Below, piece after piece: positions 1 to 60,609 of a stretch of 64,000 nucleotides of DNA. The DNA comes from a virus. Its lineage: Duplodnaviria > Heunggongvirae > Uroviricota > Caudoviricetes. Below the pieces are notes generated by a model. The model made no database searches, was not told where the DNA came from, and saw nothing but the letters and a program-made list of their open reading frames with translations. The position numbers were made by a program, and so were the translations under genes. Within the stretch, counting starts at the first letter, position 1, and every line of letters starts with the position of its first letter. The DNA lies in IMG/VR virus record IMGVR_UViG_3300010882_000011, positions 64,001 through 128,000 of that record. One strand, written 5' to 3'.

Positions 1-747
1 TATTTAAGATCTAATAACGTAACATTAGAACAAGTTGTAGATTACTTTGCAAACCAGAGGCTAGAAGACTATTTATCACAAAATCCTGACCAAAGACAAA
101 TTCAGTCTTACTCGATTGATGAATATACTAATGAAGAACTCTACGTTGCAGATATCAAGTCGAAATTCCCATCTTTGAGTGATGAAGAATTACAACAGGA
201 ATTAGATAGAGCTAAAGAAAATGAAGATTTGTTTAATAAAAAAGTTGAAATTCTTCGCGAGACTTATAAAGCTGAAGAACAGAAACAAATCGAGTTAAAC
301 GAGCAACAGGTTCAACAGCAATTTGAAGATCTTAAAAATAACCTAACAAGTGTATTATATAATTTCAATGAAATACCGTTAGATTATGATGATCCTCAAA
401 CTGATATGTTAGTTATTGAAGACGCAGACAAAAATCAAGTATTATCTTATTTGCTTGAACAAGATTCAGAAGGTAAAAGTCAATTTGTAAGAGATATTGA
501 AAATCCAGAGAAGTTAATTGAATTGGCATGGCTTGCCCTACAGGGAATGACTACAATTACTGAAACTTCTCAATATTGAAAAGATATTTTAAAATCTGAA
601 CGAAAGAAGATTTCAACTCTGGAGAAAGAGATTGAATCTTTAAAAGCAAGGGGACAAAATACTGTTATAATTGACAAAGGTAATGATACACCTCCACAAG
701 TATCTGGGATGGGTTCACTTTGAAGTTCGCGAAACAACCTAATATAG
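1..747 (+). CDS. Acidic conserved crAss-like protein upstream of MCP (possible scaffolding protein), 5'-partial; TGA=Trp at 577-579 and 721-723
   Basis: Frame 1 is open from base 1 and reads through two TGAs to TAG at 745-747; acidic, coiled-coil-like; sits directly upstream of MCP. Confidence 0.7.
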
Positions 748-771
748 GCAAATAAATAATATATTTAAATT

Positions 772-2199
772 ATGAGAATAACAAACTTTACAACTGTAAG
801 ACCTAATATGAGCGAAACTCGCACATATGAGGATTTTATGAAATTTTTAGGGGCTAACCCTGCAAGACTTGGTATTGTATCTACTTTGTATGATCAATAC
901 ACAGCAACTCACTTAACTGAAGCTCTTTTGAATACTTATACATTGGAAAAAGGTAAGAAAAATGCTTTCCAAAGTATTGATTCATTCGTAGTTGAATGGG
1001 ACATTAATGTAAACCGTATCAAACGTGTACATTTCAAAGCTGTTCCTGAAGGCGATGGCGCTAACGGAAGTGATATTATATTTAGATTTGGAGAAAACTA
1101 CTACCAGAAATTTGACACTTTCATTATAGAAAGAACTCGTCAGTTGATTATCGTTCTAAATCGTCCACAACGTATTAGCGATAATGAATGGGTAGTAATT
1201 GGTAAAATCCAAGACAGCGATTACGGCTCTGTTCTTGATACGTCTGGCACACAAGTTGGTATGCCTACACGTTTCGTAACGAACTACATGCCTGAAATGC
1301 ACGAAGAAGGATACGTTAAGTATCAAAGTAACGTTGAACGTCACAGAACTTATATTGGAACACACAGAGCTGATGCTTCTATGTCTGCACAATACAATGC
1401 AATGGAAGACGTATTTATCCAAATTGGAAAAGGTGATAAAGACGATCCTATCTATAAACTAAACACTGCTGAGAAGGACTGTTTAGATTCATTTATGGAA
1501 GCTCGTAACAACGCTTGTTTGTGGGGTAAAACAAATATGGATCAATTCGGTAAACCGAAAATTTATGACCCTGAAACTGGCCGTCCAATTATTGCTCCTG
1601 ATGGAATTATAGCTCAGATCGAGCGTTTTGCTACTAAATTTGCTTTCAGCAGATTGAACACCAAATTCTTCCACAAAGCATTACAAGTAATGGTTACTAA
1701 ATCCACAAAAGCAACTGGAAACGATTATTTATTCCTTTGCAACACTGCTATGTGGACTGAAATTCAAGAAACACTTTCAACTTGGATTCGTGATTGGAAA
1801 ACTGTAGGTACATTCGTATTCTCTACAGCATCTAACGGATATGTTGATTTAGGTGCAACTTACAACTCCTATGAGTTTGCAGGTAATAAAGTTACTTTCA
1901 AAGTTGACCGTTCATTTGACATTGAATATCCAACTCGTAAATTCGGTATTTTCTTAGATTTAACAGCCGATGCTGTATCTGGAAAAGCTGCTTTGAATAT
2001 GTTTACCTTCAAGAGAGGTGAAATTATTCATAACTTTATCAAAGGTGTTGGTGGAAACACTGGTTTACAACACGGCGAAGTATCTTCTCCTGTTGCTGCA
2101 TCTAAGATAATCAACTGGGGTTATGCAGGTGTTGGGGTTTATAATCCTTATCGTTCTGTAATCCTAATTTCTGAAGAAACTAGAACTCTTTGGTTCTAA
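772..2199 (+). CDS. Major capsid protein (crAss-like, HK97 fold)
   Basis: 475-aa ORF with crAss MCP-like sequence (e.g. GYVKYQSNVERHRTYIGTHR, LWGKTNMDQFGK); position at the head of the virion module. Confidence 0.85.
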   Translation: MRITNFTTVRPNMSETRTYEDFMKFLGANPARLGIVSTLYDQYTATHLTEALLNTYTLEKGKKNAFQSIDSFVVEWDINVNRIKRVHFKAVPEGDGANGSDIIFRFGENYYQKFDTFIIERTRQLIIVLNRPQRISDNEWVVIGKIQDSDYGSVLDTSGTQVGMPTRFVTNYMPEMHEEGYVKYQSNVERHRTYIGTHRADASMSAQYNAMEDVFIQIGKGDKDDPIYKLNTAEKDCLDSFMEARNNACLWGKTNMDQFGKPKIYDPETGRPIIAPDGIIAQIERFATKFAFSRLNTKFFHKALQVMVTKSTKATGNDYLFLCNTAMWTEIQETLSTWIRDWKTVGTFVFSTASNGYVDLGATYNSYEFAGNKVTFKVDRSFDIEYPTRKFGIFLDLTADAVSGKAALNMFTFKRGEIIHNFIKGVGGNTGLQHGEVSSPVAASKIINWGYAGVGVYNPYRSVILISEETRTLWF

Positions 2200-2217
2200 G
2201 AGATAATATTGGTGATA

Positions 2218-2242
2218 GTGCTCCTGTCTATGATGGGAGCAC
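2218..2242 (+). terminator. Stem-loop after MCP (attenuator or mRNA-stabilising hairpin)
   Basis: GTGCTCCTGTC-TAT-GATGGGAGCAC, 11-bp stem with two G-U pairs; no immediately adjacent U-tract. Confidence 0.55.
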
Positions 2243-2292
2243 ATAAACCTTTTAGATAAAATCTTAACAAGATAATTTGAATAAGAAATAAT

Positions 2293-3213
2293 ATGGAAAA
2301 TAAAACTATAACAATACGTAGCGTCTATAAAGTAAAACAATATTACATTCAGCCGCTAAAACAAAAGAATGGGATGAATCATCCATTTGTAAAGAAAGTA
2401 AGAATTAATCCGAATGGAGAATCCGAGATGATTCTTAGTGAAAAGGAAATGAATGATCCAGAAAGTCAATATTTCATCCCAGAAGATATGGAAATATTTA
2501 TTGAAGATGGAACAACTTTTAACTTAGCTGATCCTTTGCAAAGAAATAAATGGTTGGCCATTCAGGATTCTGAATTAATTGTTCCAACACGTGGAGCAAA
2601 AGATGAACATGGTAATTTAATCATTGATGGAGATAAACGTAGATATGGATTAGCCGAACTTTACGTTGATGTTCCTGGAGAAGAATCAGAAAAGAGTGTT
2701 AATAAGAGAAAACTAATCACCAAAGCATGGACATATATTGAAAATGATTCTGCTGCTGGTAGATTAACAAAGGTGAAATTACTAGGTAAAGTAATGAGAA
2801 ATGCTCCAGAATCGGACATTGCGGATTACTTATATCAAAAAGCAGAAGCTAAACCTGAATTGGTAATTGATCTTTATACAAGTCCCGATAGTGTACTGAA
2901 ACTTTTACTTATTGACGCAAGAGAGAAAAACGTTATAAGAAAAATCAATCAGTTATTCATGTATGGAGACACTGTTCTCGGAGCAACTGATGAAGCAATG
3001 ATATTATTCTTGAAAACTCCTTCTAATAAGAGAGTTTTAGAAGCCATCAAAAACGAAACATATCCCGATTTTGTTCGTACTGTAAATTCCAATTTAGATG
3101 GACAACAAGACCCTAATGATGAAAATCCTGGTCTTGCACTTACAAACGAAGACCCTATTCCCGAAATAAGTGAAGTTGACAAACAACTTAACAAAGGGAA
3201 AAATAATAAATAA
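2293..3213 (+). CDS. Conserved crAss-like virion protein (p-crAssphage gene 75-like position)
   Basis: 306-aa ORF following MCP; synteny. Confidence 0.65.
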   Translation: MENKTITIRSVYKVKQYYIQPLKQKNGMNHPFVKKVRINPNGESEMILSEKEMNDPESQYFIPEDMEIFIEDGTTFNLADPLQRNKWLAIQDSELIVPTRGAKDEHGNLIIDGDKRRYGLAELYVDVPGEESEKSVNKRKLITKAWTYIENDSAAGRLTKVKLLGKVMRNAPESDIADYLYQKAEAKPELVIDLYTSPDSVLKLLLIDAREKNVIRKINQLFMYGDTVLGATDEAMILFLKTPSNKRVLEAIKNETYPDFVRTVNSNLDGQQDPNDENPGLALTNEDPIPEISEVDKQLNKGKNNK

Positions 3214-3233
3214 TAAATAACAAGTAGAAACCT

Positions 3234-4121
3234 ATGACAAGTCGCGAACTTTATGAATATGCTTTAATTGAAATTAATAAGTTAGAAGCGCCTTCATTAC
3301 TACTGGAAGATTATAACTATTTTATTAATAAGGCTGTTCAACAGTATATTAATAAAGTTTATAATCGATACGACATTAATCAACAGTCAACAGACGATTT
3401 ACGAGTATTAAAGTCCTCTTCAATTTTGGAATTGGAACTTGATGCTTCTGAAATTAGCATGATAAACCTTCTTAATAGAACGTATTCATGTTTTATGCCA
3501 GACGATTATCTTCACATTTTGAACTGTGTGGTTGAATATGAAGTATTATCACAAAACTTTAAATGTTACGATGTTGGAACTAGAGTTTATTTCCCCGCAA
3601 GGAGATTAACTGCCGATATGTATTCACTGATTATCAATAATGCTTATATGCGTCCAATGTATAAAAGACCATATTACTTTATTAATAATGTGAACCTTAC
3701 TGAATATCAAAATAGTAATCTAATTGCTGTACCACAGAAACCAATATTGCCGTCTAATCCAGAAATGGATCAGGAAATTATTGACTCTGATCAAATTGAC
3801 AGTATTAGACCAATCTTTGATAGAAAATCCAATAACTCCACAGTTAAACTAGAAATTAGATATGGACAAGATGATGCTTTATTTTTAGCAAGAAGAGCAT
3901 ATGTGGATTATATTAAATCTCCAATGTTCGTTCGTCTTACTCAATCTCAAATTGACAGAACAGTTGATACTTCACAGGTTTTAGAATTTCCAGATTATGT
4001 ATGTTTTGAAATAGTAAACGAATTCGTTAAACTATTGTTAGAAAACGCAAGTGATCCTAGAATCCAAACTAATCCAGTAGTAAATCAAACAATTGCAACG
4101 GGAATACCTGAGCAACAATAA
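3234..4121 (+). CDS. Conserved crAss-like neck/tail ring protein (gene 74-like)
   Basis: 295-aa ORF; N-terminus YALIEINKLEAPSLLLEDYNYFINKAV and DDLRVLK resemble the crAss ring-protein family; synteny. Confidence 0.65.
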   Translation: MTSRELYEYALIEINKLEAPSLLLEDYNYFINKAVQQYINKVYNRYDINQQSTDDLRVLKSSSILELELDASEISMINLLNRTYSCFMPDDYLHILNCVVEYEVLSQNFKCYDVGTRVYFPARRLTADMYSLIINNAYMRPMYKRPYYFINNVNLTEYQNSNLIAVPQKPILPSNPEMDQEIIDSDQIDSIRPIFDRKSNNSTVKLEIRYGQDDALFLARRAYVDYIKSPMFVRLTQSQIDRTVDTSQVLEFPDYVCFEIVNEFVKLLLENASDPRIQTNPVVNQTIATGIPEQQ

Positions 4122-4154
4122 AAGAAAATAGAAATTTAAAACAAGTAAGAAATT

Positions 4155-5333
4155 ATGTTTACCTATACAAAAGAAATTATCATCAACTCGATGTATGCTG
4201 ACCAAGATGCTTATGGTTCAGGTCAACAGTTGCCTAAAATACAATCTGTAATTACTCCTGCTCCGAATACAGCACCTGCTGGTGTACTTAGAATATTAAG
4301 AGCTGGTGAGTACAAACAAGAAAACATTCAAGGAGCTAGAATTTTCAAAACTCCTGGTGTTGTTGGACAAACTGCTACAATGTTAGTTCCAAATGCAGCT
4401 GGTTTAATGGCCACTGCTGGTATTTACAGAGTTTCCATTTATATTGGAATGGCTCATAAATACTTAGGAGACTTTGCTCACGCAAACTGGTATCCATTTG
4501 GTAAAGCATTAGTTGCTGACTTCTCTGTTGCAGACGGAATGAGTGCTGCTGAGAAAATGCAACAAATGACAAATGCAATCAACTTGACTATTCCTCGCAA
4601 TAACATTTTTGCAAGAACAGTTCTTAACGGAGTTGACCTTTCAGTTTATTTAACTGATCCTTATGCTTTCATCGCCAGAGCTACTTTGGAATGGTATGAT
4701 CCAAACGAATGTAATCTTTGCTCTGGATTCTACACAGAAATTCCAGAATTTGAAAACCTAGTTGAAATTACTAGAAATGTTGAGCCATTTGCAACTGCTG
4801 CATGGTTAGTAGAAAACTTGAGATTCCCAAGTTATCCGAATGTTCGTTATGCTGCTTTGTATGCTGATGAATATCCAATTGCTGGACAACTTTACACTAT
4901 GTATTCATTTGCATATGATGTTGAAAGAACTGGTTACTTCGGATTAAACGGAGTTAACGAGAAAATGGGTGCTGTAACAAGACACGTGTACTATGTACTT
5001 AATAGCGAAGTTGCTGCTTTTGAAGCACAAGTAACTGCTGCATTCCCAAATGTTGCTATTGTAGAAAATAATACTGTTATGATTACAACTGCTCCAACAG
5101 TTGCTAACGATGGTGTTGCTATTCAATTAGTAGCTACTACTTGGCCAATGGATTCTTCTGCAACTATCACTTGGGCTTCTGCGGATCTTCCAGCTGATGT
5201 TACTTTAACTTCTACTGGTATATTGACTGCTGATCCTGCCGCTGTAGTTGGAGCAACATTCACCGTAACTGCTACATCCAGCAATCCTGACTATAAAGAA
5301 GCATCTATATTGATGACTGTAATTGCAGGATAA
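4155..5333 (+). CDS. Auxiliary capsid/decoration protein with C-terminal Ig-like domain
   Basis: 392-aa ORF; C-terminal ~85 aa is Thr/Ala/Val-rich with Ig-like pattern (ATITWASAD...TGILTA...TFTVTATS). Confidence 0.6.
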   Translation: MFTYTKEIIINSMYADQDAYGSGQQLPKIQSVITPAPNTAPAGVLRILRAGEYKQENIQGARIFKTPGVVGQTATMLVPNAAGLMATAGIYRVSIYIGMAHKYLGDFAHANWYPFGKALVADFSVADGMSAAEKMQQMTNAINLTIPRNNIFARTVLNGVDLSVYLTDPYAFIARATLEWYDPNECNLCSGFYTEIPEFENLVEITRNVEPFATAAWLVENLRFPSYPNVRYAALYADEYPIAGQLYTMYSFAYDVERTGYFGLNGVNEKMGAVTRHVYYVLNSEVAAFEAQVTAAFPNVAIVENNTVMITTAPTVANDGVAIQLVATTWPMDSSATITWASADLPADVTLTSTGILTADPAAVVGATFTVTATSSNPDYKEASILMTVIAG

Positions 5334-5357
5334 CAATAGATAACAAAATATTTGAAT

Positions 5358-5400
5358 AAGGGCGAAGTGGAATTCGGTTTCGCTTCGCCCTTTTCATTTT
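5358..5400 (+). terminator. Rho-independent terminator ending the capsid operon
   Basis: AAGGGCGAAG...CTTCGCCCTT stem (5358-5392) followed by T-rich tract. Confidence 0.85.
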
Positions 5401-5413
5401 TAAATTTACTTAT

Positions 5414-6079
5414 ATGTTACTAACAGAATTGGCTTCTGCCATATATAATGATGTTGTGGGTGGTTTACGCGGATATGCAGCTACTCCAAATATGTCTTTG
5501 GAACAGCTTGAAGATGAAATCATTGAAGAAAGACAGGCTGTAATTAAAGAATGATATTGAAAAGGAATATTATCCGTAAAGGATTTATTATTGGCTATTA
5601 ACTGTATTGAAGTTGATTGTAAAGATCAATCCCGTTGTTGTGGTTTTGAATTGGGAAGGAATGCAATGCACTTTGAAATTCCCCCGCTGATTAATGATTT
5701 AGGTTCACAGGCAATTAAATTTGTTGGCAGTGTTGACAGACAAGTAAATTATTATGTGTATATGACTGATGCTTTTAGATACCACAAGTATAGAAAACGC
5801 AGTGCTGATGAACCATACGTTTACATTGAACCTACACCAAACGAAAACGGCATGTATGACGGATGAATTTTTAATGTGCCGTTTGTGAAGTATATTTCAG
5901 TTATAGGAATTTTTCGTGATCCCAGAATGCTCGAAATGTTTAATTGTTGTGAGAAAACCCACATCTTAAATTTGGGTGCAGTATCCAGCGAAGTAAAAAG
6001 AAGATTAACGGAGAAAAAATTGAGGTACTATCGTCAATTTGCACCACCTCCACATCCTAATGATCAAATCCCACGTTAG
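5414..6079 (+). CDS. crAss-like tail/neck ring protein, 221 aa (TGA=Trp x3)
   Basis: ATG 5414 in frame with track fragments 5591 and 5876; TGA at 5552, 5558, 5864; ends TAG. Confidence 0.7.
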
Positions 6080-6081: not shown

Positions 6082-6771
6082 ATGAGATTAAATAACATGC
6101 GATCAATCATACCAATGATTCGTATTCTTTATGATGTTGATATCGATTCAACTGAATTTGAAGATTTAGCAATGAATGCTTGGGAACAAATTGGTCAAAG
6201 ACACACACAATTACATAGATATGTAGCCAACACTGTTGATAGAATGTTGGAATTACCGTGTAATCTTGATATAATTGAATCTGTACATATTCCAATTAAT
6301 GATGCTCAGATGACCAGTAATCAAGACATCTTCCACTCAGTTCAAACTCTATGAGTTGAAAATTATATTGATCTATGGAAACGATTAGAACATCCAATAG
6401 CTGGACGAGGAAAACTTGTGAAGTATTGGGAAGCTGGAAATCAATTGCAATTTTCCAGAGATTATAGAAATGTAATGGTTATTTATCATGGAATCATTGT
6501 TGATGATGATGGACTTCCATTGATAAATGAAAAGGAAGAAAAAGCTATTTCTGCTTATATTGCTTATATATACCTATATAAAGAAGCTCTTAAAAAGAGA
6601 GATAAAGTATTAATGGAAATGTCTCAATTAGTAAAAAGAGATTGATTAAAATATTGTAATGCGGCTAGAATTCCTGCAAATATCACACAGAACGATATGG
6701 ATCAAATACTTGATGTTAAGGTTCGATGGGATAGAAAGCAATTTGGAAAATCAATTAAACCAATATTATAA
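6082..6771 (+). CDS. crAss-like tail/neck ring protein, 229 aa (TGA=Trp x2)
   Basis: Joins fragments 6082 and 6418 through TGA 6352 and 6643; ends TAA abutting the next ATG at 6772. Confidence 0.7.
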
Positions 6772-10700: not shown

Positions 10701-11470
10701 GAGCTTATGTGTTTCACAATGTGGAATCACTTCCTGGTAACTTTATAAAAGTGGGAATAGATGAATCTAACAAAAAATCTTTATTTGATATAAATCCATC
10801 AACTTTACATTATAAATTTGTTAATCCCAGATTTGAATTAAAAGGAAAGTATTATAACTTGCTATCTAGTAATGAAGATTTACCTCCGAGTAGCTTTGTA
10901 AGCTTGATAACTACTGCAGAGAGCTACATTGCAGGATCATTTGTAATCAAATCTAATACATCTAATTTTACTATATCTAACACCTCCTTATTTAATACAA
11001 CTACTTTTGCCGAAAATATAATTCTTCCTGGTCGTACAGTAGATAGTAGGTTTGTCCCAACTTTAGTTGATGAACAAAAAATGGAAGAAGCAAGAATAGT
11101 TATTAGAGATAAACAGTCAGAAATAAGTACTCAATCATCTAAATTTGCAAGTTTTAATCTTAGCGTTAAAGATATAATGATTGATGATAGTGAGTGAGAT
11201 TCCAGTAGGGATATTGCAACACAATCCAATTTTGCTTTATGACTTCCGAGAGCTCGAGATTTTGCTGAACACTTAAATGTAACTAACACAACTGATATTA
11301 ATACATCTTCCCTAAGAAAGACGGCCTTCGTCAGATCTGGAAGATTAAAAACAAACAGAACTTTAGTAATCACCACTTCTGGAAATGATTACCCTTCTGG
11401 AGGATCTAATAAAAGACCTAAAGTCCAGATAGCTAAATATAGTCAGGGAGTATTTCCCCTTATAAAATAA
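7757..11470 (+). CDS. Large tail protein, 1237 aa (15 TGA=Trp)
   Basis: N-terminus MRQEATNTFIEGVNMDLSPLTTPNNVLTDCLNGT...QNDMGN resembles the crAss tail-stabilisation-type family; single frame free of TAA/TAG; TAATG overlaps at both ends. Confidence 0.75.
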
Positions 11471-14400
11471 TGCCAACATTACATATCAAAAAGTATTTTC
11501 AGGAAGGGGATTTGGCCCATGAATACAATCCCCTTTTAAATAAAGTAAACAAAAATGTTATTCCAGATAGCAATATCAAATTAAATGAAATAACAAATTT
11601 TGTAACTAATAAAATAGGTATAAATTTAAATAATCCAGTTAATATTGAATGTCAACCCTCCTATGATGGGACTGTCAATCTTATTATAAACGATGATATA
11701 AATCCTCCTCGTATTATAAATTCTAGGTTTTCAAAGGTGGAAGATAATCGATATAGGATTATAAATCGTAATCAATTACATCAAACTAATTTATATGTGG
11801 AAGACAAGATAGATTCACAAACTAGACTTTTTAGAAATATAAATAATATTCCAAGGTTTGATTTATTAAATGTAGGATACTTTGGTCAACTTAAAGGGGG
11901 GAATTATACATTCTATGCTAAATTTGCCGATAATGATTATAACCAAACAGATATCGTGGCTGAATCATCTCAGGTTAGCATATTTAAGGGTACCATAATT
12001 AAACCCAGCAGTATTTCTGGAACTTTACAGGATGAGAAGACAGATAAATCAATTCTATTATTTATCTCGAATATAGATACTAGTTTTTCTAAGGTATATC
12101 TATATTATAGTCGTGAAACTAGCGATATAAATGGATTTAGAACAACTGAATACGGAATGGTTAAAGTTCCTTATGAAATAAAAGAATCAACATTGCTAAT
12201 TAATTTCAATGGATTTGAGGAGATAATCAACATTGATGAAGAACAATTAAACATAAAGTATAATTTAGTAACAGCGGTTAAGACGCAAACACAGGTTCAA
12301 AATATGTTATTTTTTGGAAATATTCAAGGAGTAAATATAAATGTGAAAGATTTACAAAATATATCTTTATTTATCCCAGTCACATTAACACAGGAAAATT
12401 CTTCTATTGGGTATGTAAGAAACAATTACACATCTCAGGAAAATGATTCTGTGGAATCAGTTGAATACTATAACCCGCTAAATATATACTATAAGTTAGG
12501 TTATTGACCAGGTGAAATATATAGGCTCGGAATAGTTTACATAATGAATGATGACTCATTGAGTCCTGTGTTTAATTTGCGTGGATGTGAGTTTATAAAA
12601 ACGGAAGGAGGATTTAGTTCTAATTTTTATTCCGATGAAATCTATGGTAAATTATTTGATGATAAGAATAATATGAATTATTTGCCGCAAGATAGTTTTT
12701 TATATACTGATTATTTGAATAATACTAAAGGTGTATTTAAAAATCCTGAATTAATCAGTCCATATGATTTTGATAATAAAAAAATTAGACCCTTCTGTTA
12801 TAAAATTGAAATAACGAAAGAAATAAATGATAAATTGAAAAGTTTGTATGGTGTAAAAGGATACTTTATTGTAAGACAAAAACGCATCCCAATTACATTA
12901 TGTCAAGGATTGTCTGTTGGGATAGATAAAGTTTCATATATTCCAATGTTGAAAGATGGGGATGATTATTTTACAGAAAGCTTTATTAGTAGGAATAAAG
13001 TATTGACAACTGATTTTTCAAGTAGAAAAATTACTACTCCATTAAAACAGACAAGTGGATTACTTTCAGTTGATGTCTGTGTAAATCCACAGTTACAATC
13101 CCTTTTTGATGGTTCTGATTTTGTTTGTCAGAAATTCGCAGAAGTTAATAATATTTCTCCTTCTGGTAGATTGTTCTCGTATAGTTCTTATAAGAATTTT
13201 GATAGCATACTTTTAACAAATAACACTGATTTAATCTTTGTTAATTCAGATATTCCTTTAAAATACATTAACAACAATAACTATGCAACTAGAGTTGGTA
13301 CTGCAGAAGATGTGAAACAATTCGGGTTTATAGAAAATAGATCATTAAATGATTCCGATGCAGTAAATCTAGTTAGGGGGGTATATTGCCCTTTTCTGGG
13401 ATCATCAATGAATTTGTTTGATAATAGTATATATAATATTCGTATTAAAAACTATTCTAGTATTTTTGTTAGAGAGTATTTTAATATACGATTCAATGAT
13501 AATTCTCCATTTTTTGCAATCAGTGATAGGTATGAATTATTACCCATTACTACTGGTATAGGTGATCCTGATTCTGAAGATTATATTGATTCAGAGGAGG
13601 AGTACAGAAATCTTTACGAAATACAGGGATTGTCTAATGTTTATCGCGGGGATTGCTTCACAAATACAGTTACTATTAGACTAAATAGAAATTTTGTTGA
13701 TCCTGATGTTCCTGTTAATGAAACAATTGTAGATACCAATACATGAACTCATTATAGAGGAATAGGGGCAACTGAAGCAGAGGATTGGTCGGAGATAAAT
13801 AGAGCGGATTTAAATACTGTCCCTTTAGGAATGTGGGTAACATTTAAATGTTTATCTAATTATAATTTAGGACTTCGTTCAGAAGATAGGACAAACACAG
13901 ATGAAATGGCAATAATGGGAAATTCAAGAAAATTTTTCCCATTATCCAATACTTCAGTTTCCGTAGCAAATAAACTTGATGAAAGTTGAAAGCTAAATGA
14001 CGGCTACAACTCTACTGTTGGAAAAAAACGAAATGCAACAGCTATGGATGTGCCTTATATTAAGGATTTGTTCGATAACAGAATAATGTTCAGCAATGTT
14101 CAGATTGATGATGATTTTATAAATGCCTATAGAATATTTCAGGGATTGGCATATAAAGATATCGATAGACAATATGGAGCAATTGTAAAACTTATTGACT
14201 GGGGAGTAAATCTACTCTGCGTTTTCGAGAACGGACTCGCATTAATTCCAATTAATGAAAAGGCATTGATGACCACAAATACTGGACAATCAATTCACAT
14301 GTACGGAGCTGGTGTAATTCAAAATCAGGTTACATTAATCACTCCCGATTATGGAAGTATATGGCCAGAATCTGTCATAAGAACTCCAACTGGAGTTTAC

Positions 14401-16296
14401 GGTGTCGATACCTACGCCAAGAAAATATGGCGGTTTTCTAATTCAAATGGATTTGAGTTAATTTCCGATATGAAAATTCAGCAATTTTTAAATGAAAATA
14501 TTAAATTAGCTGAAAAGGATAAATATCCTACAATTGCACTAAAGAATGTAAAATCTCATTTTAACAACTATAAGGGTGATGTAATGTTTACTTTTTATAA
14601 TGTGGATGAAGATGAAATCGAGTGGAATTTCTGTTATAATGAAAGACTTGGTAAGTGAATAACTCGCTACAGTTGAACACCATTATGTTCCGAAAACATT
14701 AATAATATTTTCTATAGTTTAGATAAAAGACGTGCTGAATTATTGGCATTCATTTATGATAATTTGAATAGTACGGCTGGCCTCAATACTGTTCCCTATA
14801 TTTCTAATATATTTACTGATGCCAATTTGTGATCAACTGAGCATAATGAACATGAAGATGATGGAGACACTCATATTGATTTTAATACATTGATTAATAT
14901 TGTTAATTATAACTTCTACGATTGATTTAAAATTAAGTTAAATGGAATTGAATCTTCGTATATTGATAATCAAGGAAATGAAGTTTTATTGGTTTTCAAT
15001 AGTAAAGATAATGAAGGAAACATTATTGGAGAGAACAAACAAATAATCTGTAAATTAGAAGATAATTACTTTTATGTTAGAAAAAGTACACTAGAAGTTG
15101 GCGAACACTTATTATGAAATTCTTATATATCTAATGAGAATAGGGTATGAGAACCAATAAAGACCGATACTATTGTAAGTAGTCTTATTAGTGGTGAAAC
15201 ATTTTACAAGTTTGATAGAACATCATTAACTCATGAATTATGATATAATTTTGAAGGAGAAGATATTGAAGACAATGATACTTTCAAAAGAGAAATACTA
15301 AAATCTGATATATACAACGGAAAACTATGATTGAATAAGGATTTCCTCAATTACGATGAAATAAATCTTTACTATTTTAAAATTAGTATTTCTATAATTC
15401 CAATGGTACATACATATAATGATGATGGGAGTATAAAATGGAAGGAAATTGAGGTATTTGATGAGGAGGGCAATGTGATAGGAACCGAATTAATACATGC
15501 AGATTTATCTGGAAGTACATTTAAGCAAACAGTAGGTATTATACTTAATTATAAAAATCTTGATTATGATAGAAAAATTGAGTACGACAAACTCCTTCTA
15601 AACGGCTTCTATGTCCACGGCAAAGCAGGAATTTTTGATGAAATCGACTATACTGACAAAGACGAAACAAACGAAATTCTTCCAACAAAATGGTATGATA
15701 AACAGGAACCATTTGAATATGAGTTCGTTGTAAATAACTTAACTGGTTTACATAAAATCTTTAATGATTTAGTTATTATATCCAATAATGTTGCACCAGA
15801 GTTATTCACATTTACTATTCTTGGGGATGTTTATAATTTCAATAAACGGGGAATTCATAGGTACAAAACTTTCGGAGAATCTGAATGGCTGAGTGGTACT
15901 AAAACTTCGCAGGATTTCTATATGGAAGGAGCATTTGATCCAAATGAACCAGAAAGTATGGATAATCAAAATACTGGAACTTATATTAAACGTGACTTGA
16001 CTACAAGAGAATATTATCTTAAAACTAATCAAATTGCGAAGGATATAAAGAATCCTGATTATGGAAGACGTAGAGGTAACATGTCATACAAAGAAGATTC
16101 TTGATATACAACTATTGAACCCATTCGTTTTAGGTCTAAGTATAGAGATCCTTCTACAGGAGAAATTTCAATTGATAAGGATTTCAATTCCACAAGAATA
16201 AGAGATAAGTTCTTAAAAGTAAGAGTAAGATATGACGGTAAAAACCTAGCATTAATTACTGCACTAAAGACTTTAATGACAGTTAGTTACTCTTAA
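11470..16296 (+). CDS. Tail stabilisation/muzzle-like protein, 1608 aa (12 TGA=Trp)
   Basis: Fragments 11470, 12544, 14044, 15331 share a frame and the gaps contain only TGA; readthrough gives KWITRYSWTP and C-terminus RIRDKFLKVRVRYDG...TVSYS*. Confidence 0.75.
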
Positions 16297-44166: not shown

Positions 44167-47100
44167 TGGAAAGATGTGATAAGTTTAAGGTAAAAATAAA
44201 TGGCAAATGAAAGACGTTTAATTCCGATAGAGAACTAGACCTTTTCCTAAAGTCGAATCAAGATAAATACAAAATAGATGAAGTTCATAAAACGTTCTCT
44301 ATTGATCCTATGGCTGAAGCCCTCGCTAATCTTGAAAAAGCGAGGGTTAAGACCCAAATAGAAGAAACAAAGGATGTAGCAATGCAGCCAACTATGGAAG
44401 AATTAAAAGAAGGTATTGAAGTTGATATTAGTAATGAGAAGTACACAAAGGTACCAAACTCAATGTCTGTAACACAGTTTAATTCCACATTTGGTAAACC
44501 TGACAATTGAGCTGAACCTGCGGTTACTCCCTATAATAAAGAGGCTATAAAAAACTTTTTGTTAACTAAATACAGAATAACTAATACTGAAGCTGAGGCT
44601 CAGAAAATGACCCAAGATACTCTTAATTCTTATGAACAACAAACTCAATATGGTACTGATGTCCATGATTATATGGAATCTATTATTAAGGGTGTAAGTA
44701 AAGAATTTAAACTTGACGGTGGTCAATTTAGAGGTAAGGCGGAAAGATTTATACGTGAGACAATTGACAAGCATACTATAAACGGAAAAAAACCTGAAGT
44801 TTTTAGTGAATATGCTATACAATCCAAAGAGTTAGATAGGGAACTTATAAAAGCTACAGGTGACAAATTTAAGACACTTCATGGTAGAATGGATTTACTC
44901 ATTATAGACAGTGCGGGAAAAGCACATATATATGATTTTAAGGTTTCTAAAAGGGAAGTTGGAGACTGGGACATTACTGAAAACTATGTTATTAATAAAG
45001 GTGGATATTGACATTCAACAAAGAAATATGGTACTGCTTCTCAATTAGCATATTATAGAAGAATACTAGAGCAACACGGTGTACGTGTTGGAACAACAAA
45101 TGTTGTTCCTATAAAGTTAGATCTAGAATATGAGGATGATAATATAAATATTAAGGGTGTTAGAAATATTGTTATAGGGGAAACTTTAACTAACGTTAAG
45201 GGGACAAGACCTGGTTCTAGAATGTATCGCAATATTTATAATATGCTGCCTTCTCAATATGAAGTTGGTGAAACAGGAAGATTTTCAACCACTATATCCA
45301 AAACCGCTGCCCTATTTCCTATCGCAAATAAAAAATTTACAAGTATCAATCAAGACAGAAATGTAGATTTTCTTATAAAAGACAAGAAAGTTTGAAACCA
45401 TGTTGATTCTAGTACTGAAAAAGGTCAAGAAGGATATAAATATCAAATATTTTTCAATAGAATTAAGGGTTCTAGTAGTCTTTTTTATAAAACGAAGGAA
45501 GAGTTTGAAGCAGGTATGAAAGAATATGCTGATGCTATAACTTCTTCTAGAGGACAAGAAATGAAAGATATAGCAAACGCGATCTTAGAAGTACAGGATG
45601 GTACAATGGATATTACTGAAATATCAGGAAGTGATAAAAATGCATACGTTAATTTCATTGCGAGACATTTCGATAGATACATAAAAAATGACTGAAAACT
45701 CCTTAAAATTGATGAATTAATACAAAATGGATACTTTGTATTTCAGAAACATGGGCGTACAGAGGTGCTATTAATGACAGATCAAACACTACGTAATGTA
45801 AATGAACTTGCACGAGGAACTTCTCTGTTAGGACAATGAAAATCTGATACTACACAGAAACTAAAACAAGTATTACCTGCTAGTAATGCTAATATTGAAA
45901 TGATGAAAGCAATGATTTTCATCACAGAAAATCCTGAATTATTCACTGAAACACAAATTGACAAAATTGATGTTATAAATCCTTGACATCGCAGTAATGT
46001 ATTTAGTTACAATGAAGATCTAGTATTCAATTATCAACAACTTAGACAATATTCCTCTGATTCTTTAAAAAATATTCCACCAAATCTCTTTAGCAATAAT
46101 GTTGAGTCTAAACTTAGACAAGCAGATGCCATTGTAGAATATGGAAGTGACTGAAAAGCCATCGGAGATCTCCTTAAAAATGATGCAAATAAAGCAATTA
46201 TTGCTAAGAAGGATATTAAAGCATTAATTGATGAGTTAATAAGATCAAACGGCAGAAAAGGTGGTACACTTTGAAATGCCAAAACTCTGGATCCTAATAA
46301 TGATGATGTTAAAATTCTATTTTATTTAACACAGGCTTATCTTGCAGTGGATGGTTACAAGGCATATGATGAATTGGATGTAAACAAATGGTTGCAAGGT
46401 GTATATCCAACAGGAGGATACCTCTCCAGTCCCGACTTTTCTCGTTCTAGAAATGTTCAGCAAATGGCAGATATCGTATCTCGTTATTCTACAGAAGTAC
46501 GTCAGGGGGTGGCTAAGAAAGTAGCGATTTATGAAAAACCTCTCCGTGATTTATATAACAGCAATAAGCTCCATATTGAAGGAGGAGAAGCCAATATCTT
46601 CAAAGAATTTCTTAGAAGGGATCCAACTACAGGAAAAGTTGATTCTCGTTTATTGTGAAAAACATTAGATGATCCTTACTTTGTAGATAGACCTAAAGAA
46701 AAGAAAGTTATGGAATTATACTTCAAAATATGAGAGGAATATAGGTACAATAACAATGAAACTGATATTTCTGCTGCCAAAGCTAATGATTCATATTACG
46801 AAGTTCCCCTAATGCCAGCAAAATTTGTTCGGCAAGTAAAGAATGATAAATTGGCTGCTGTAGCCAAAAACATATATAAGGAAGCAATGAATCTTATTGA
46901 AGGCTTATCTCATGACCAAACTGAAATGAAACAGAAGTATGAAGCTGATCATCAAAGTCTTTTTAATAGGTTTAATACGAATGAATTTTCTAGACAAACA
47001 CTACTAGATAGCCAAAATACTGGATATTGGGAATTTGACTTAGAGCGTATTCTAATTAATGTTATAGAAGAATATGAACAAGAAAAAGCTAGTGCTAGAT

Positions 47101-48677
47101 ATATACCTGCAATACAAGGTCTTCAAATGGCTTTGCATGTATATGGTTTATTTGCCAATGGAGAAGCAGTAATTCCTAATGTTGAAGAAGTTATTCAAAA
47201 ATATTTGACGCGCACATTATATGAATCTCCAATTATGGATGAGAGTTTAATCCCAGCTTATAGAGTTATGAGTATATTTAAGGATGCCACATCTAAACTT
47301 ATGTTGGGAGGTAACTTTCGTTCTGGCATTAGAGAGTTAATACAAGGAGGTTTATTTATTGGAGCTGTTAGAGCATTTTCAGGTCAAATGGGAGACCATA
47401 TTGATGTGGCCAATTACACAAAAGCTTATACTTATATTTTAACAGAATTCCCCAGTTCTATAAACAAGATTCATTTCGTGGAATGGCTAAATGCCGAATA
47501 CGGTATGGCAAATATATCTATAAATGAAATTGCAGAGTATTTCAGATTAAATCAGTTAGGGATTCGTAACTTTGGAAGTCATCAATTATTCTTTGCAGCC
47601 AAAATGGGAGATTTTCTTCATAGAATGACTTTCTTAATAGGAAAGATGATGAAAGATGGTTCTTGGGAAGCCCATAGTGCTAATGAAGAAACTGGTAAAG
47701 CAGAATATGATTTTTATAAAGACTCTCGTTATACTAAATTTGTCGAAGGTGATGTACATCATCCTGACTATGCAAAACAGAAAGCGCTATACCTTGTTAA
47801 TATGGAAAAATTTAACGAGGAAGGTATATGAGGACACATTGATTATACTCCAGGTGAAAAACCTATGCCATTGCCTAGAGCTTACACACATACTGAAGGT
47901 AAAGCCATGAAAGTATATGCGGACTTACTATACGGTCACTATGATTTAGAATCAAGAGCCTTACTTAATAGTACATTCTTAGGAGCTTTTTTCATACAAT
48001 TTCAAACATTTACCATCGGTAAATTAGAACAATGGTTCTTAAAACCTGGCTTATATAATATAGAATCTCCAAAGCAACAATATTTGGATGGGGAAAGATT
48101 GTGGAGAGTTGAAAGATACCCAGTAATTAATGAAGATGGTACGTTTAGTGGTTTTCCAGAAGTTGACTTTGTTAAAGAATCTTTATTGCAAGAATCGGAT
48201 AAAAAATTTGCTTCTCTTTATATGGAATTTGAAGCCCAACCTTTGGAGGGTATATGGTTTTCAATGATGAGTTATGCAAAAGATATTTTTAGTCTAGACT
48301 CAGCAGGACTTAAAGAACACTGGGATGATCCAGTAAAGAGGGCTAACTTGGTACACTTCCTTAGTGACATTATAGGTATGATTATTCTAGGATATTTAGT
48401 TAAATGAGCATTTGATTGAAAAAACTTGAAAGATGAAGGCGTACTTAAAAACTATGCAGCCCAAATAGCCTATGGCTCCACACAGGATGGCCCAATTCTT
48501 AATATCATAGACCAATTAGTTGGAGATCTGAATCCTCCAACTAAATCCACAATGGAAAAATTGTGAAATTCTACGGGTTCTATGATTATCGGGGATGTTA
48601 ATATGTGGCAATGATTAACTACTAATGTTGGTGCAATACGTGAATTCAGAGTTGTATCTAACAAAATGACACAATAA
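44166..48677 (+). CDS. Giant virion protein, 1503 aa, with PD-(D/E)xK nuclease domain and hydrophobic C-terminal segment
   Basis: TAATG overlap start; GTDVH...GRMDLLII...IYDFK...QLAYY; frame checked through 45011-46347 (only TGA); ends TAA. Confidence 0.75.
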
Positions 48678-48679
48678 TC

Positions 48680-48726
48680 AAAAAAAAATAGCCCGCACTC
48701 CTTTCGGAATACGGGCTATTTTTTAT
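48680..48726. terminator. Bidirectional intrinsic terminator between the convergent modules
   Basis: A-tract-TAGCCCG...CGGGCTA-T-tract at the strand switch. Confidence 0.9.
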
Positions 48727-49442
48727 TTTAAGAGTTTTGCTAATTTCTTACATTTATCAAACAAATCGGATAATGTACCATCGTTTTCTAGTAAATGGTG
48801 GTACATTTTTTCGTTTAATAACTCTTCTAATTCGGATTCAGAAGAGTGAACTCCTGGTTTAGTACCAGGTCTTGTAATGTGAACTACCTTAGCTTTATTG
48901 GCTATGGCTTTATTGTGTTCATTTACAAATCTTTGGTCACATATAATCAGATTATCATACACTGATTTCAATGTAGATAATATCCAAATATCCTGACCAA
49001 AATGGAATCTCATTATTTCTGTCCCGAAGTATTGCATTACTTGACGAACAGATAAATAATAAGTACTTGTTAGTTGATAACCTAAACGATTCATTTCTTT
49101 CATAAACTTTGAATCAGATAGAATCTTTGAACTATCAAGTTTATCCCTGTGTGCTACAGTTAATGTAGTAAAATCAACAAAATAATTTTCCTTGAAGTCT
49201 CTATCTTCCAACGATGCTCTATCAACATTTAATAATTCTGCAATCATTACTTTGATTTTTTCAGCATACAATGTTGTATGATATTTACTCTTGGAGTATT
49301 TCAAGATTGGTTGTAATAACCTATACATCTTATAATTGTGAAGAAACTTTGGCATATTTAAACAATATACCAGCATTTCTCCAGAAACAGATTTACCACT
49401 GTTTTTATAACCTTGTATAGTAATTATACTCCTTACCCCCAT
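48723..49442 (-). CDS. Deoxynucleoside monophosphate kinase (T4 gp1-like)
   Basis: GYKNSGKS P-loop, RQVMQYFGTE, ICDQRFVNE. Confidence 0.75.
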   Translation of the reverse strand: MGVRSIITIQGYKNSGKSVSGEMLVYCLNMPKFLHNYKMYRLLQPILKYSKSKYHTTLYAEKIKVMIAELLNVDRASLEDRDFKENYFVDFTTLTVAHRDKLDSSKILSDSKFMKEMNRLGYQLTSTYYLSVRQVMQYFGTEIMRFHFGQDIWILSTLKSVYDNLIICDQRFVNEHNKAIANKAKVVHITRPGTKPGVHSSESELEELLNEKMYHHLLENDGTLSDLFDKCKKLAKLLK

Positions 49443-49678
49443 ATAATAATAGTATTACCTGGGAATTTAGGATGTTCTTCAACAGCATAACCTAATTCAA
49501 CAAGCTCATCATATAGATCAGTGTTTACTGTTGTACTAATAGCAAAATCAACAGTAATTCTAGTTGCATTAGTAAATCTCTGTCTTCCTAATAGTGTTGC
49601 AACTTTAAGAAATCTTGTATCTAATAGTCTCCCTTCTTGGGCAGCTGCAAGTTGTTCTGCAGAAATAATGTCTACCAT
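49433..49678 (-). CDS. Hypothetical protein, 81 aa
   Basis: ORF with TAATG coupling to the upstream gene. Confidence 0.65.
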   Translation of the reverse strand: MVDIISAEQLAAAQEGRLLDTRFLKVATLLGRQRFTNATRITVDFAISTTVNTDLYDELVELGYAVEEHPKFPGNTIIIWG

Positions 49679-49920
49679 TATTCGTAATTATTAATTAATT
49701 CTTTAATCTCTTTTAACTCAACAAGTATATTTTTATGTTCAGTGTCATAATAATACTTACGATCTATAACCTTGTACTTGCGAGGTAGTGTAGTTCCTTG
49801 ATATCTCCCTTGAGTTGCAGGAATAGTAATTATTTCTCCAACTTCGGGAATTACTAGAAAGTTTGTTTCAAGGAGAACAAAACTTTCACATTTGTATATA
49901 ACGTGGTATTTACTAATCAT
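49678..49920 (-). CDS. Hypothetical protein, 80 aa (IPxVG motif)
   Basis: TAATG coupling at both ends. Confidence 0.65.
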   Translation of the reverse strand: MISKYHVIYKCESFVLLETNFLVIPEVGEIITIPATQGRYQGTTLPRKYKVIDRKYYYDTEHKNILVELKEIKELINNYE

Positions 49921-50294
49921 TATCAGTCATATGTAAATCCGATTATGCGATCTTTTTTAACTTTTTCAAAGAGAATATCAATAAGTTCTTCTACGTTGTC
50001 GTGAATATTATCATCCTCACATTCCTTTGCATATTCAATTAACGCTGGAAATGACCTTTCCATATATTTCTCTCACCACGGTCCACTATCATATTCATTG
50101 GTAAATTTTTCCCATTTCTCGTCCTCGAAGTCTAACATTCAACCACTGTAGGGCAATAAACCATATGCGTCAATCAACGTCATTATTTCTAATTTGGTTA
50201 GACCAGAGTTTGTCTCCAATAAGTTATCAACTAAAGACTTCTTTTGCTGATTATATATTTCCAACACCGCAGCCCATTCTGAAAACTTACTCAC
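49920..50294 (-). CDS. Hypothetical protein, 124 aa (TGA=Trp x3)
   Basis: GTG 50294 overlapping the thyX stop; TGA at 50139, 50073, 49923; final TAA overlaps the next ATG. Confidence 0.6.
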
Positions 50295-51144
50295 TGATAT
50301 ATCCTTTCTCCTTAAATTCTTCATATAACGGTATTGCCAATTCTCTCATCTGAGGATGCGCACTTTCTGCTACTCTTAAACCAAAGAAGTGTTTTCAATC
50401 ATCTAGGAATCCTGTCATTACTACTTCTGTTTTAAGTGCGTTTGGTAATACTGCTCTTGCTTGTTGAGGTTGCCAATTACATTCATTCAATAAGTTAAAA
50501 TATCTATTTTCACATTCTCGTAAATGATAATTGAATATTCTACTATCTTTATCAGTGTCTGTATTATCTAACCAAGTAGGTTGTATAAAAGTAATTTCAT
50601 TATTAAACTTATCTTTAGAATAGTTACAATATCTTGTACTCTCTTGAGCAAAACTAAATACTCTATGTCTTACTAATTCATGGGATACGCCTCTATCACA
50701 AATCCATCTAACTGATACTCTTTTTTCATGGTGTTTTGTTGGTAAACAAATATATTCTAAATCATCTAACCAATTATTCTCTAAAAGAACTCTATAGTTA
50801 GTTGTGATATAATATTTATGTTCATTACCATTATAATTACAAACTGAATATTTATTATCACTATACTTTAAACCATTGGGTTCTTCAATATATAAATAAA
50901 CAGTACCATGTTCCAACATAGCCGTATGACCTCTTTCGATAATCATATCTACAAATTTCTTCGCAGAATCATCAGTTATTCTATCTTCGGACTTGTAGCA
51001 AGTTCTCCCTGCTACTTCAATTTGTTTATACACTACATCTAAAGGATCATTTTCTAAAGTCATAGAACCTGTTTTTGCACCTTTACATATAGTAGTATAA
51101 TATTCTGGATTTAGTATTTCTACTGATGGCTTAATTAGCTTCAT
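50287..51144 (-). CDS. thyX: Flavin-dependent thymidylate synthase, 285 aa
   Basis: GHTAMLEH, ELVRHRVFSFAQESTRY; readthrough of TGA 50395 restores W-KHFFGLRVAESAHPQMRELA. Confidence 0.9.
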
Positions 51145-51319
51145 ATTCTTTTTCAAGGATTAAACGTACATGCTCATCACAATCATCACATCATATAGAG
51201 TCAATATCATCTAAGCATGCTTCGCTTGTATATTCGTAGGTATTGGCATCAACTCAAGCTATAACACTAACGTTCCTAGATCCACATTCTGCACATACCC
51301 ATATTTGTTTTTCGTTCAT
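51131..51319 (-). CDS. Small Zn-finger protein, 62 aa (TGA=Trp x2)
   Basis: WVCAECGSRNV...AWVDANT...WCDDCDE; absent from the ORF track. Confidence 0.7.
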
Positions 51320-51328
51320 TGTTCAATT

Positions 51329-53317
51329 TTAATGAATTCAGCAATCTCCAACCTGAACATCAGCGCCCAATTTAATATTGGTACAGAATACAGCTCCTGC
51401 TCTTTCCATACAGTCAACTAAGACTCTGGACATTTCGTCAGCTATTTCTTCTGGAGATTCTATGTTTATTTCGTCATGAGCAGGTATAGTGAACTTCACT
51501 TTAAATAGAAGATCATTTTGTATTAAATAATCATACAAGAATATACAGGCATACTTAAACATAAGTGCGCCACAGCCTTGAATACGATAGTTGATACTTT
51601 GTTTTTCACTTTCTGCTCATCTTCTTGCAAGTTTTCTTACATCTTGCACTGTTGGACAATCTGGATCCATTTCTTTCAGTCCTCTGTAGGTTTCCCAAAA
51701 GCCAGATTCATTCTGCCGTTTCTGCATTCGTTTCAACTCCTCAAAGTCATAGATATATGCTTTGTGTCCAGTTATTGGGCTCAATTCGATAAATCCCTTT
51801 TGCCGAACCTCCTTTCTTGCCCATTTCTGGTAGTCACGGAGACCAGAGAAACCTTCCATATATTTATCATATACTTCTTTTGCTCATGCTGCACTAATAC
51901 CATAGTTTCTTACTAAAGTACTATCCTGTCCACCATAATTAAAGGCAAATTCATATCCTTTTGCTTCCTGACGAAGATGTTTATATTTGGTTTTTATTTC
52001 CTCTAGTGGAAAATCGTTTGGTATTTCATCAAATACCATCCTAGCAGTTAGACTATGTAAGTCTCCAGAACCGTGAATGAGTTCATAAAGCATAGCCTCA
52101 TCATTAGAGATCGATGCCATGATAACACTCTCCTGACCTTGATAGTCAGCAGAAATTCACTTATGACCCTTCTCTGCAACGAAACATGCTCTGGTTGTAG
52201 CATCTCTTGGCAAGTTTTGTAAGTTTGGATCTGAAGAACTTAACCGTCCAGTATCTGCACCTAATTGCCAGAAATTCGCATGGATTCTTCCAGTCTTTGG
52301 GTTGATTAAATCCAGAAACTTTTCTCCGAATGTTCCTACCAAAATAGCTGCCTTCTTATATCCTATAAATATGGGTATGAGAGGGCTTTTTTCTTTCTGT
52401 GGCTCAATTACTTTGATATCCACAGACTTTTTCATTTTCTTAGTTACTTTGTCTAATGTGTTGACATTTATCCCAAGTTGTTCAAATAATGGAATAACTT
52501 GTTTAGAGCTTTTCCAGTTAATGTTACACTTTGGTCTTGTGTCAAATCCAGAGAATAAATCTCCCTGAATATTAACTGTTACAAATTTTCCTCCGACATT
52601 TTCCTCTACTCAAGCATTAAGCTCATTAACTCTTTCTTCACAAGTATCAGAGTCGTCAGTCATTTTTGCACGTCATTTATTAGTATCGACCTTTGTTCCA
52701 CAAAACTCAAAATAAGCAAGTGGTTTCACAAAATGATTTTCAACTTTAATAGCATTAAGAAGCCCTTGTTCTGCAAGTTTTTCTTCTTGTTTTTCTTTAA
52801 TTTTTTCCAGATATTTAACATCTAATGCAGCATATTCTACTACATTTTCAGTTAATCCTTTATCAATAATTTGACCACGTACCGTCTTATCTAATTCAAT
52901 TCCTAGATAATTCATACCAGCTGCTTTTAAATTCATTTCATGCATACCAGGTGGATAACCTAGCCACAATAGTTTTTCAGCCAAGAATCCGTCCCAAATT
53001 TTCTTCGGCACTATTCCCTGCTTAAATAAGAATTTTAAGTCAAACTTCGCATTTCAAAATAGAAATGTTCTATTGGATTCTAAATAAGGTTTGTATCGTT
53101 GTATATCAACAGTCAAGCAATCAATAACTATCTGGAAATCATAACAACCTAACTGAAGGGATAAGAGTTTCTTTGTATAAACATCAAATCCCTCAGTTTC
53201 AGTATCCGTTCCAACTGTCTTCAAAGATTCTAACATCTCTAGAGACTTTTCTACTGATATAATTTCGTACATCGTAGATTTTAATAGTTGGGGTGCATTA
53301 GTTACTAGGTAAATCAT
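51329..53317 (-). CDS. polA: Family A DNA polymerase with 3'-5' exonuclease, 662 aa (7 TGA=Trp)
   Basis: Six fragments in one frame; DTETEG exonuclease motif, TGRLSSSDPNLQN, ADYQGQE, RQEAKGYEFAFNYG, AHDE; ends GDCWIH*. Confidence 0.92.
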
Positions 53318-54778: not shown

Positions 54779-54780
54779 AA

Positions 54781-58694: not shown

Positions 58695-58713
58695 TGTTTT
58701 TGATTTTATTCAT

Positions 58714-60608: not shown

Positions 60609-60609
60609 G

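Follow-up and report, generated by a model that had tools for sequence, protein, structure and literature searches.

This report concerns a block of four genes in the late region of a crAss-like phage, in which every tryptophan codon is TGG although the surrounding late genes write tryptophan as TGA about as often as TGG. The stretch of DNA analysed, called the window below, is 64,000 nucleotides long and covers positions 64001-128000 of one virus record of 170,238 bp (IMG/VR IMGVR_UViG_3300010882_000011; CheckV completeness 100%); termite gut is the source of the DNA runs in which it occurs. The block encodes the predicted major capsid protein (MCP), a conserved protein, a tail-barrel ring protein and a predicted auxiliary capsid protein (aux), and is followed by a terminator-like element (Table 1).

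Table 1. Features of the block and of its neighbours, with positions counted from the first base of the window
Feature	Position	Strand	Properties
Gene upstream of MCP, 3' part ('gene 77' position)	1..747 (genome 63665-64747)	+	360 aa; TGA at 577 and 721
Major capsid protein (MCP)	772..2199	+	475 aa, uninterrupted; 8 TGG, 0 TGA; C-share of NNY codons 0.49
Hairpin directly after MCP stop	2218..2242	+	11-bp stem, G+C-rich; z -4.1
Conserved protein ('gene 75' position), gene 2293	2293..3213	+	306 aa; 2 TGG, 0 TGA
Predicted tail-barrel ring protein, like phicrAss001 R3-R5, gene 3234	3234..4121	+	295 aa; zero Trp codons
Predicted auxiliary capsid protein (aux), gp36-like	4155..5333	+	5 TGG, 0 TGA; C-share of NNY codons 0.43
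Terminator-like element	5358..5402	+	16-bp stem (5358-5392; 7 of the pairs G-C), 3-nt loop, T-rich tail; z -6.4
First downstream gene	5414..6079	+	Weak ring-protein-2-like match PF25702 (E 0.002, below cut-off); 3/3 Trp codons TGA (5552, 5558, 5864)
Ring protein 1	6082..6771	+	PF24228 CrAss_Ring_1, 41 bits vs cut-off 27; 2 TGA/4 TGG
Muzzle protein, low-copy comparison gene	11470..16296	+	PF25731 crAss_MUZ, E 5.5e-32; 12 TGA/9 TGG

The long genes on the + strand of the window are open only when TGA is read as a residue. All late genes end in TAA or TAG, never in TGA, and in-frame TGA codons align with TGG or tryptophan columns of homologues. Across the late + strand block, which spans genome positions 26.9-112.7 kb, 193 TGA and 179 TGG codons are used. 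The genome thus belongs to a crAss-like phage with a TGA-to-Trp recoded late module, for which tryptophan charging of the decoding tRNA is predicted. This layout has already been described for the Zeta group (PMC7886860; PMC12386605), with which the window genome shares TGA as tryptophan in structural, lysis and packaging genes, a tRNA(UCA), and early genes that are compatible with the standard code. Among the 20 tRNA genes of the genome, one carries the anticodon UCA and lies outside the window, at genome c[162826-162919]; at 94 nt, it is called by ARAGORN as a selenocysteine tRNA under the standard code and as a tryptophan tRNA under code 4. A domain search of the complete genome found neither an RF-1/RF-2 domain (PF00472) nor a class-Ib synthetase (PF00579). 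Hence, with no gene for a release factor or a tryptophanyl-tRNA synthetase (TrpRS) type of enzyme, UGA decoding appears to depend on the tRNA alone.

The MCP of the window gives no match to PF23898 (Crass_capsid) in Pfam at E<=0.1. Orthologues that are 53% and 66% identical to it over the full length, however, score 51.8 and 34.1 bits against a cut-off of 27, and the family is present in most of the 120 MCP homologues listed, which makes the window MCP a predicted family member by transitive homology. For aux, an AlphaFold2 (AF2) model with a predicted local distance difference test (pLDDT) score of 80 has its best match in the Protein Data Bank (PDB) in 7qof_a (333 residues; Foldseek E 7e-8). 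Aligned with VIA-align, the two superpose over 258 residues with Z 12.3 and a root-mean-square deviation of 3.9 A, the next unrelated row having Z 8.9. The 333-residue length of this chain and the domain limits given in PMC10172136 indicate that 7qof chain a is gp36 of phicrAss001. With its modelled two-domain fold and its position downstream of MCP and the ring gene, the protein is assigned as a gp36-type auxiliary capsid protein. The model of gene 3234 (pLDDT 72) has 7qoj_D/E/F as its top three Foldseek matches, with E 1.5e-8 to 1e-7 and TM 0.65-0.69 by target; the gene has no Pfam match. As modelled, its product has the ring-protein fold, a helical domain plus a beta-sandwich, and would not be a capsid protein.

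Gene order is shared with phicrAss001 (gp32 as MCP, gp34/gp35 as ring proteins, gp36 as auxiliary capsid protein; PMC10172136; 7QOF, 7QOJ), running from MCP through an unknown gene and ring protein to aux, and the fold matches for aux and the ring protein come at a sequence identity of ~8-15%. The two phages differ in that phicrAss001 has two ring paralogues at the position where the window has one, and in that the 333-residue gp36 lacks an extra C-terminal domain present in the window aux. This domain (residues 305-392, window 5067-5333) is Ig/cadherin-like in its model, with Z ~8 to intimin and to the C-terminal domain of T5 pb6, and may be an outward-facing decoration. Gene 2293 gave no family or fold match in phmmer and profile searches of PDB sequences, and only unnamed viral clusters in the Atlas.

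Codon counts were made under translation table 4. A reading of the window from its letters alone (hereafter the sequence-only reading) had reported that all 15 tryptophan codons of the four genes are TGG, that the gene upstream has two TGA codons and that the first gene beyond the terminator has three; each of these counts proved exact. TGA makes up 54% of the tryptophan codons in the other late genes, compared with 0 of 15 in the block (Fisher p 1.25e-5), and the run of 15 TGG is the longest in the late block, a length reached in 0.25% of 100,000 shuffles (run-length permutation p 0.0025). Thirteen of the 15 codons sit in MCP and aux, and genes 2293 and 3234 are nearly uninformative alone. 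For the two shell genes taken together, the count is 0 TGA/13 TGG against 193 TGA/164 TGG in other late genes. Out-of-frame TGA occurs 19 and 55 times per 1000 codons in the block genes and 14 and 53 times elsewhere; it is not depleted, so the effect is on the codon and not on the trinucleotide, and a general avoidance of TGA in all frames can be rejected.

To place these counts in a wider context, we collected relatives by DNA-level searches with the MCP, which yielded at least 137 related IMG/VR loci and two GenBank phage records (L140-L141). The best 80 tblastn matches were taken in each of two relative searches, and two of the six peptide patterns contained tryptophan; pattern choice and best-80 selection may favour uninterrupted MCPs, yet TGA was found at those very tryptophan sites. 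The code of each locus was called by the gain in open reading frame (ORF) length, which assigned 56 IMG/VR loci to TGA read as sense, 11 to TAG read as sense and 70 to the standard code. Dereplication at 95% MCP nucleotide identity left 23 TGA-recoded lineages, and five TAG lineages formed the TAG comparison. Of the TGA calls, two (L005 position 181 and L003 position 451) adjoin insert junctions; four TAG calls, from L134/L135, fell in an insert extension, for which the TAG counts were corrected. Table 2 gives the resulting shares.

Table 2. Recoded-stop codons by gene in 23 TGA-recoded and five TAG-recoded lineages
Gene	TGA lineages	TAG lineages (TAG share of Gln codons)
MCP	17 TGA/126 TGG, 12%	4% (3/68)
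aux	0 TGA/28 TGG, 0%	8% (3/38)
Gene 2293 orthologues	10 TGA/39 TGG, 20%	11%
Gene-77-like orthologues	14 TGA/38 TGG, 27%	21%
Ring gene 3234 orthologues	13 TGA/5 TGG, 72%	37%
Downstream ring, tail and muzzle genes	46-83%	33-57%

MCP and aux are strongly depleted relative to the remaining genes in the TGA lineages (Fisher p 5e-33), and they have the lower share in all ten loci with at least four tryptophan codons on each side. The same depletion is found in the TAG-to-Gln lineages (Fisher p 1.5e-9), which provide an independent replication, as both the codon and the tRNA are different. It extends to a more distant TAG-recoded phage, MT835492, with 4/23 in MCP and 2/15 in aux against 42-70% elsewhere. 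Free use of TGA by the MCPs of recoded relatives, the counterexample that the sequence-only reading had named, is therefore not what the relatives display, their MCPs having 12% TGA where tail genes have 46-83%. The expectation that high-copy capsid proteins avoid TGA while tail and cargo proteins tolerate it accordingly holds for MCP and aux in TGA and TAG relatives alike, but the avoidance is incomplete, with TGA present in the MCP of 10 of the 23 lineages. Two further elements of that reading need revision. Avoidance is not a property of the whole operon, since the signal is confined to MCP and aux and orthologues of ring gene 3234 use TGA in preference to TGG. The onset of TGA after the terminator, in which both the hairpin and the TGA positions are real, is a coincidence, aux being the last gene before the hairpin.

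A TGA-free block could also have arisen by chance, or because the capsid module was recently acquired from a relative with the standard code. Donors for such an import exist, as standard-code, TGA-recoded and TAG-recoded lineages are interleaved (70, 56 and 11 loci). The nearest MCP relatives are nevertheless all TGA-recoded and share the gene order, and the identity profile is smooth: the closest relative, L003, has identities of 72, 90, 78, 79, 61, 76 and 79% across the block, while standard-code MCPs are only 52-53% identical. Given also that the pattern recurs in 23 lineages and that both the permutation (p 0.0025) and Fisher (p 1e-5) tests speak against an accident, we regard import or chance as hardly credible.

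Differences in conservation offer another route to the same pattern, whereby a conserved MCP would have kept its ancestral TGG codons and TGA would arise mainly at new tryptophan sites of fast-evolving tail proteins. MCP is indeed the most conserved protein of the block, and many TGA codons of small tail genes lie at variable positions. Aux, however, is one of the least conserved proteins (24-39% identity once the closest relative is set aside) and still has no TGA in 33 tryptophan codons, 22 of which are at variable columns. MCP in turn is depleted at conserved (9/59) as well as at variable (8/75) tryptophan columns, whereas conserved tryptophan columns of ring 1, gene 7757 and muzzle are 42-73% TGA compared with 13% in MCP. 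The gene ranking is also equal for TAG/CAR. The comparison of conserved with variable columns largely refutes such neutral retention, which we consider very improbable.

Synonymous codon usage sets the same two genes apart. The C-share of NNY codons, 0.49 in MCP and 0.43 in aux against ~0.24, is strongly raised in these late genes only; the raised NNC share is present in MCP and aux of every relative, standard-code ones included. The tRNAs that the phage encodes for Asn, His, Asp, Phe, Cys and Ile include G34 species, and the high NNC share matches them, a pattern that would be expected under translational selection and from which high expression may be surmised. Tryptophan departs from the usage of other boxes. 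The A-ending codon accounts for 132 of the 163 codons (81%) that MCP and aux have in the Lys, Glu, Gln, Leu-TTR and Arg-AGR boxes, compared with 0 of 13 in the Trp box (Fisher p 3e-9 against the five other NNR boxes), and for all of these boxes, that of Trp included, the phage supplies a U34 tRNA. UGA differs from the other NNA codons in that it is also read by a release factor. A general shift toward G at the third codon position (G3) or toward GC can be rejected for the window genome, in which the G-share of other NNR codon pairs is 0.19 in the block, below the 0.24 of other late genes.

Classical codon-bias theory holds that translational selection shapes the synonymous codons of highly expressed genes. 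The present case resembles it in that the bias is confined to the genes of presumed highest demand, in that NNC codons match G34 tRNAs, and in that the bias is kept across relatives. It differs in that the codon avoided is a reassigned stop, likely costly through release-factor competition rather than tRNA scarcity, and in that the shell genes otherwise favour A-ending codons in NNR boxes.

Taken together, we consider it probable, though well short of certain, that gene-specific purifying selection acts against a costly recoded stop in the two proteins in highest demand, MCP and the gp36-like aux. We observe directly that the recoded stop is depleted, that the depletion is restricted to these genes, conserved and repeated with TAG, and that a codon-bias signature accompanies it; we infer the high expression, the competition with release factor 2 (RF2) and the nature of the cost. 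In phicrAss001, the T=9 shell has nine MCP and nine gp36 copies per asymmetric unit, ring proteins are dodecamers, and cargo proteins are present in ~6-12 copies (PMC10172136). UGA decoding in the phage relies on its own tRNA(UCA), with neither a release factor nor a TrpRS-type synthetase among its genes, so that host RF2 probably competes at each UGA. Such competition would slow decoding and release some truncated product, at a cost that would grow with every molecule synthesised and may weigh more heavily on subunits that form a lattice. Selection would then keep UGG in MCP and aux, while in the low-copy tail, muzzle and cargo genes AT-biased mutation would push tryptophan codons to TGA.

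The cost could lie in the truncated products themselves, if UGA termination yields MCP or aux fragments that are built into the lattice and poison assembly of the capsid. The two depleted proteins do form the lattice of the shell (PMC10172136), and TGA is tolerated by the dodecameric ring proteins and by the muzzle protein; ring proteins, however, oligomerise too and yet use TGA freely, and the NNC codon bias points to selection on translation itself. Such toxicity is a sub-variant of purifying selection against a costly stop, and the present data do not separate it from a cost in yield or speed; as the principal cause, it appears distinctly improbable.

A different role for the recoded stops follows from the model of Borges et al. 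(bioRxiv 10.1101/2021.08.26.457843), in which they act as a translational gate for late genes. Applied here, TGA-free shell genes would be translated before the suppressor tRNA accumulates, and TGA-bearing tail and lysis genes would be held back by the code switch. In agreement with this, reading frames are free of TGA from window position 722 to 5551 within a late block that is recoded elsewhere, and the genes of the head side (gene-77-like, MCP, 2293 and aux) all have lower shares than the tail genes, in TGA lineages and TAG lineages alike. A gate of this kind requires zero stops, yet the MCPs of 10 of the 23 relatives contain 1-4 TGA and those of TAG relatives up to four TAG. Nor is the head module TGA-free overall, as the gene-77-like gene and others just upstream of MCP contain TGA, and the genes lie midway in a co-directional late block with no sign of earlier transcription. 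The NNC bias of MCP and aux is, moreover, also seen in standard-code relatives, where the gate is absent. We therefore judge an effect of timing to be unlikely.

Several points weigh against purifying selection on the two shell genes as we have framed it. The avoidance is leaky: TGA accounts for four of the seven MCP tryptophan codons in L006 and three of seven in L003, the MCP of MT835492 has four TAG, and the TGA codons of relatives' MCPs are mostly at the conserved tryptophan sites 251, 328, 338 and 449. The lineages are related, so that pooled Fisher tests overstate their independence. High demand for the two proteins is presumed by analogy, on the grounds of codon bias and of homology to phicrAss001. 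A depletion (20-27%) is likewise seen in gene 2293 and the gene-77-like gene, which lack the NNC bias, and a split of head genes versus tail genes would fit it as well. The base that follows in-frame TGA does not depart significantly from background (p 0.11), with no sign of context tuning against RF2. Finally, MCP and aux of relatives favour G-ending NNR codons (G-share 0.35-0.62 vs ~0.17 in neighbours), and their TGG preference could in part be a general G3 preference, an explanation that does not apply to the window genome. The window lineage and L003 lack the G-ending preference (0.19 and 0.23), a lineage-specific change of codon preference that left TGG untouched.

The sequence-only reading went further and suggested that TGA density serves as a stoichiometry dial. 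In the window genome, a codon-bias proxy of demand does correlate with TGA share (rho -0.43, p 0.03), but the correlation falls to -0.27 (p 0.2) without MCP and aux. The gene rankings of TGA and TAG lineages likewise agree with rho 0.65 (p 0.03) when all genes are taken, and with 0.38 (not significant) when these two are left out, and a graded dial is thus not borne out. Gene 2293 and the gene-77-like gene have suggestive intermediate shares, which are fitted equally well by a head-versus-tail split or by timing. It is conceivable, if rather doubtful, that recoded-stop density is a heritable, gene-specific expression setting, low in head-side genes and high in tail, muzzle and cargo genes, and that it is convergent with two stops. 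Suppression would then be incomplete by design, setting the relative output of virion parts from a single late transcript and the order of shell before tail and lysis.

Published accounts of recoding in gut phages treat structural genes as uniformly recoded; in the window and its relatives, by contrast, the shell pair is strongly depleted, with TGA and with TAG. Enrichment of recoded stops has been reported for lysis genes and the tail tube (PMC7886860; bioRxiv 10.1101/2021.08.26.457843; Lera phage PMC12386605). Borges et al. tested for enriched families and proposed that selection 'enriches or depletes' recoded stops, with capsid genes unmentioned (bioRxiv 10.1101/2021.08.26.457843). Yutin et al. 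2021 called recoding from stops in TerL, MCP and portal, and one Zeta MCP was without any (PMC7886860), and Cook et al. found MCP with table 11 in 57% of TAG-recoded genomes. In the literature searched, the coverage of which was incomplete, no earlier description of a conserved shell-protein depletion came to light; the finding appears to be a new and well-replicated detail within a known phenomenon of phage recoding.

Where earlier work viewed recoded stops as an on/off gate and searched for enriched families, the conserved depletion in the shell points elsewhere. Its recurrence with TGA and TAG, and its opposition to the A-ending preference, are sequence-level evidence that a reassigned stop still costs during infection. 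This bears on the completeness of the code switch, on the continued activity of host release factors and on the design of recoded phages or hosts. It also explains why standard-code annotation often still recovers the MCP of recoded phages, and it carries a warning that the codon use of marker genes under-reports recoding.

Of the two hairpins of the block, the one at 5358-5402 has the form of a Rho-independent terminator and is predicted to act as one, and the one directly after MCP may serve as an attenuator or stabilise the 3' end of the mRNA. In ~20 loci (e.g. L001, L014, L022, L054 and L076), the 90 nt 3' of the MCP stop contain a G+C hairpin that usually has a T run. It occurs in TGA-recoded, TAG-recoded and standard-code relatives, with position and shape kept and stem sequences differing. 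Equivalent hairpins follow the aux orthologue in L016, L022, L043 and L054, while genes 2293 and 3234 have no such following hairpin. Like the raised NNC share, the hairpin thus marks MCP and aux, and it counts as part of their expression signature.

Searches of PHROGs gave no match for nine proteins, and for the four block proteins themselves Pfam gave only weak matches. A look-up of RNA runs returned none that contains the capsid block or MCP alone. In phmmer and profile searches of PDB sequences, no crAss001 chain was found for MCP, aux, the ring gene or gene 2293, and the Atlas returned only unnamed viral clusters for aux.

Upstream of the window, at genome positions 45262-61152 (L097:1262-17152), lies a run of large late genes that are fairly TGA-poor (2/9, 0/4, 4/9, 7/10 and 6/19), broken by one TGA-rich gene (10/4). 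Within this region, one gene contains ten He_PIG Ig domains and two match phage-tail repeats. These genes could be an intermediate-copy class suited to testing a graded dial.

One MCP-defined clade contains standard-code, TGA-recoded and TAG-recoded IMG/VR loci (L097/L098, from the window's own genome, left out), and the TAG-recoded loci L101-L104, L117 and L119 sit amid standard-code loci at an equal 73-74% identity to the MCP of L076. This interleaving implies that code switches are frequent within the clade, in line with published work on the Zeta group.

The MCP gene of the window is free of inserts, but in most relatives (L003 (10009-14690), L005-L019 and L133-L135) it is split by one to four inserts of ~1.1-1.5 kb. 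The insert sites lie at residues ~27, 180/181, 267/268, 371/372 and 450. Rfam gave no intron or other family at gathering score in the MCP inserts of L003, the closest relative (MCP 90% identical), and every one of these inserts holds an ORF for a NUMOD1-domain endonuclease with in-frame TGA.

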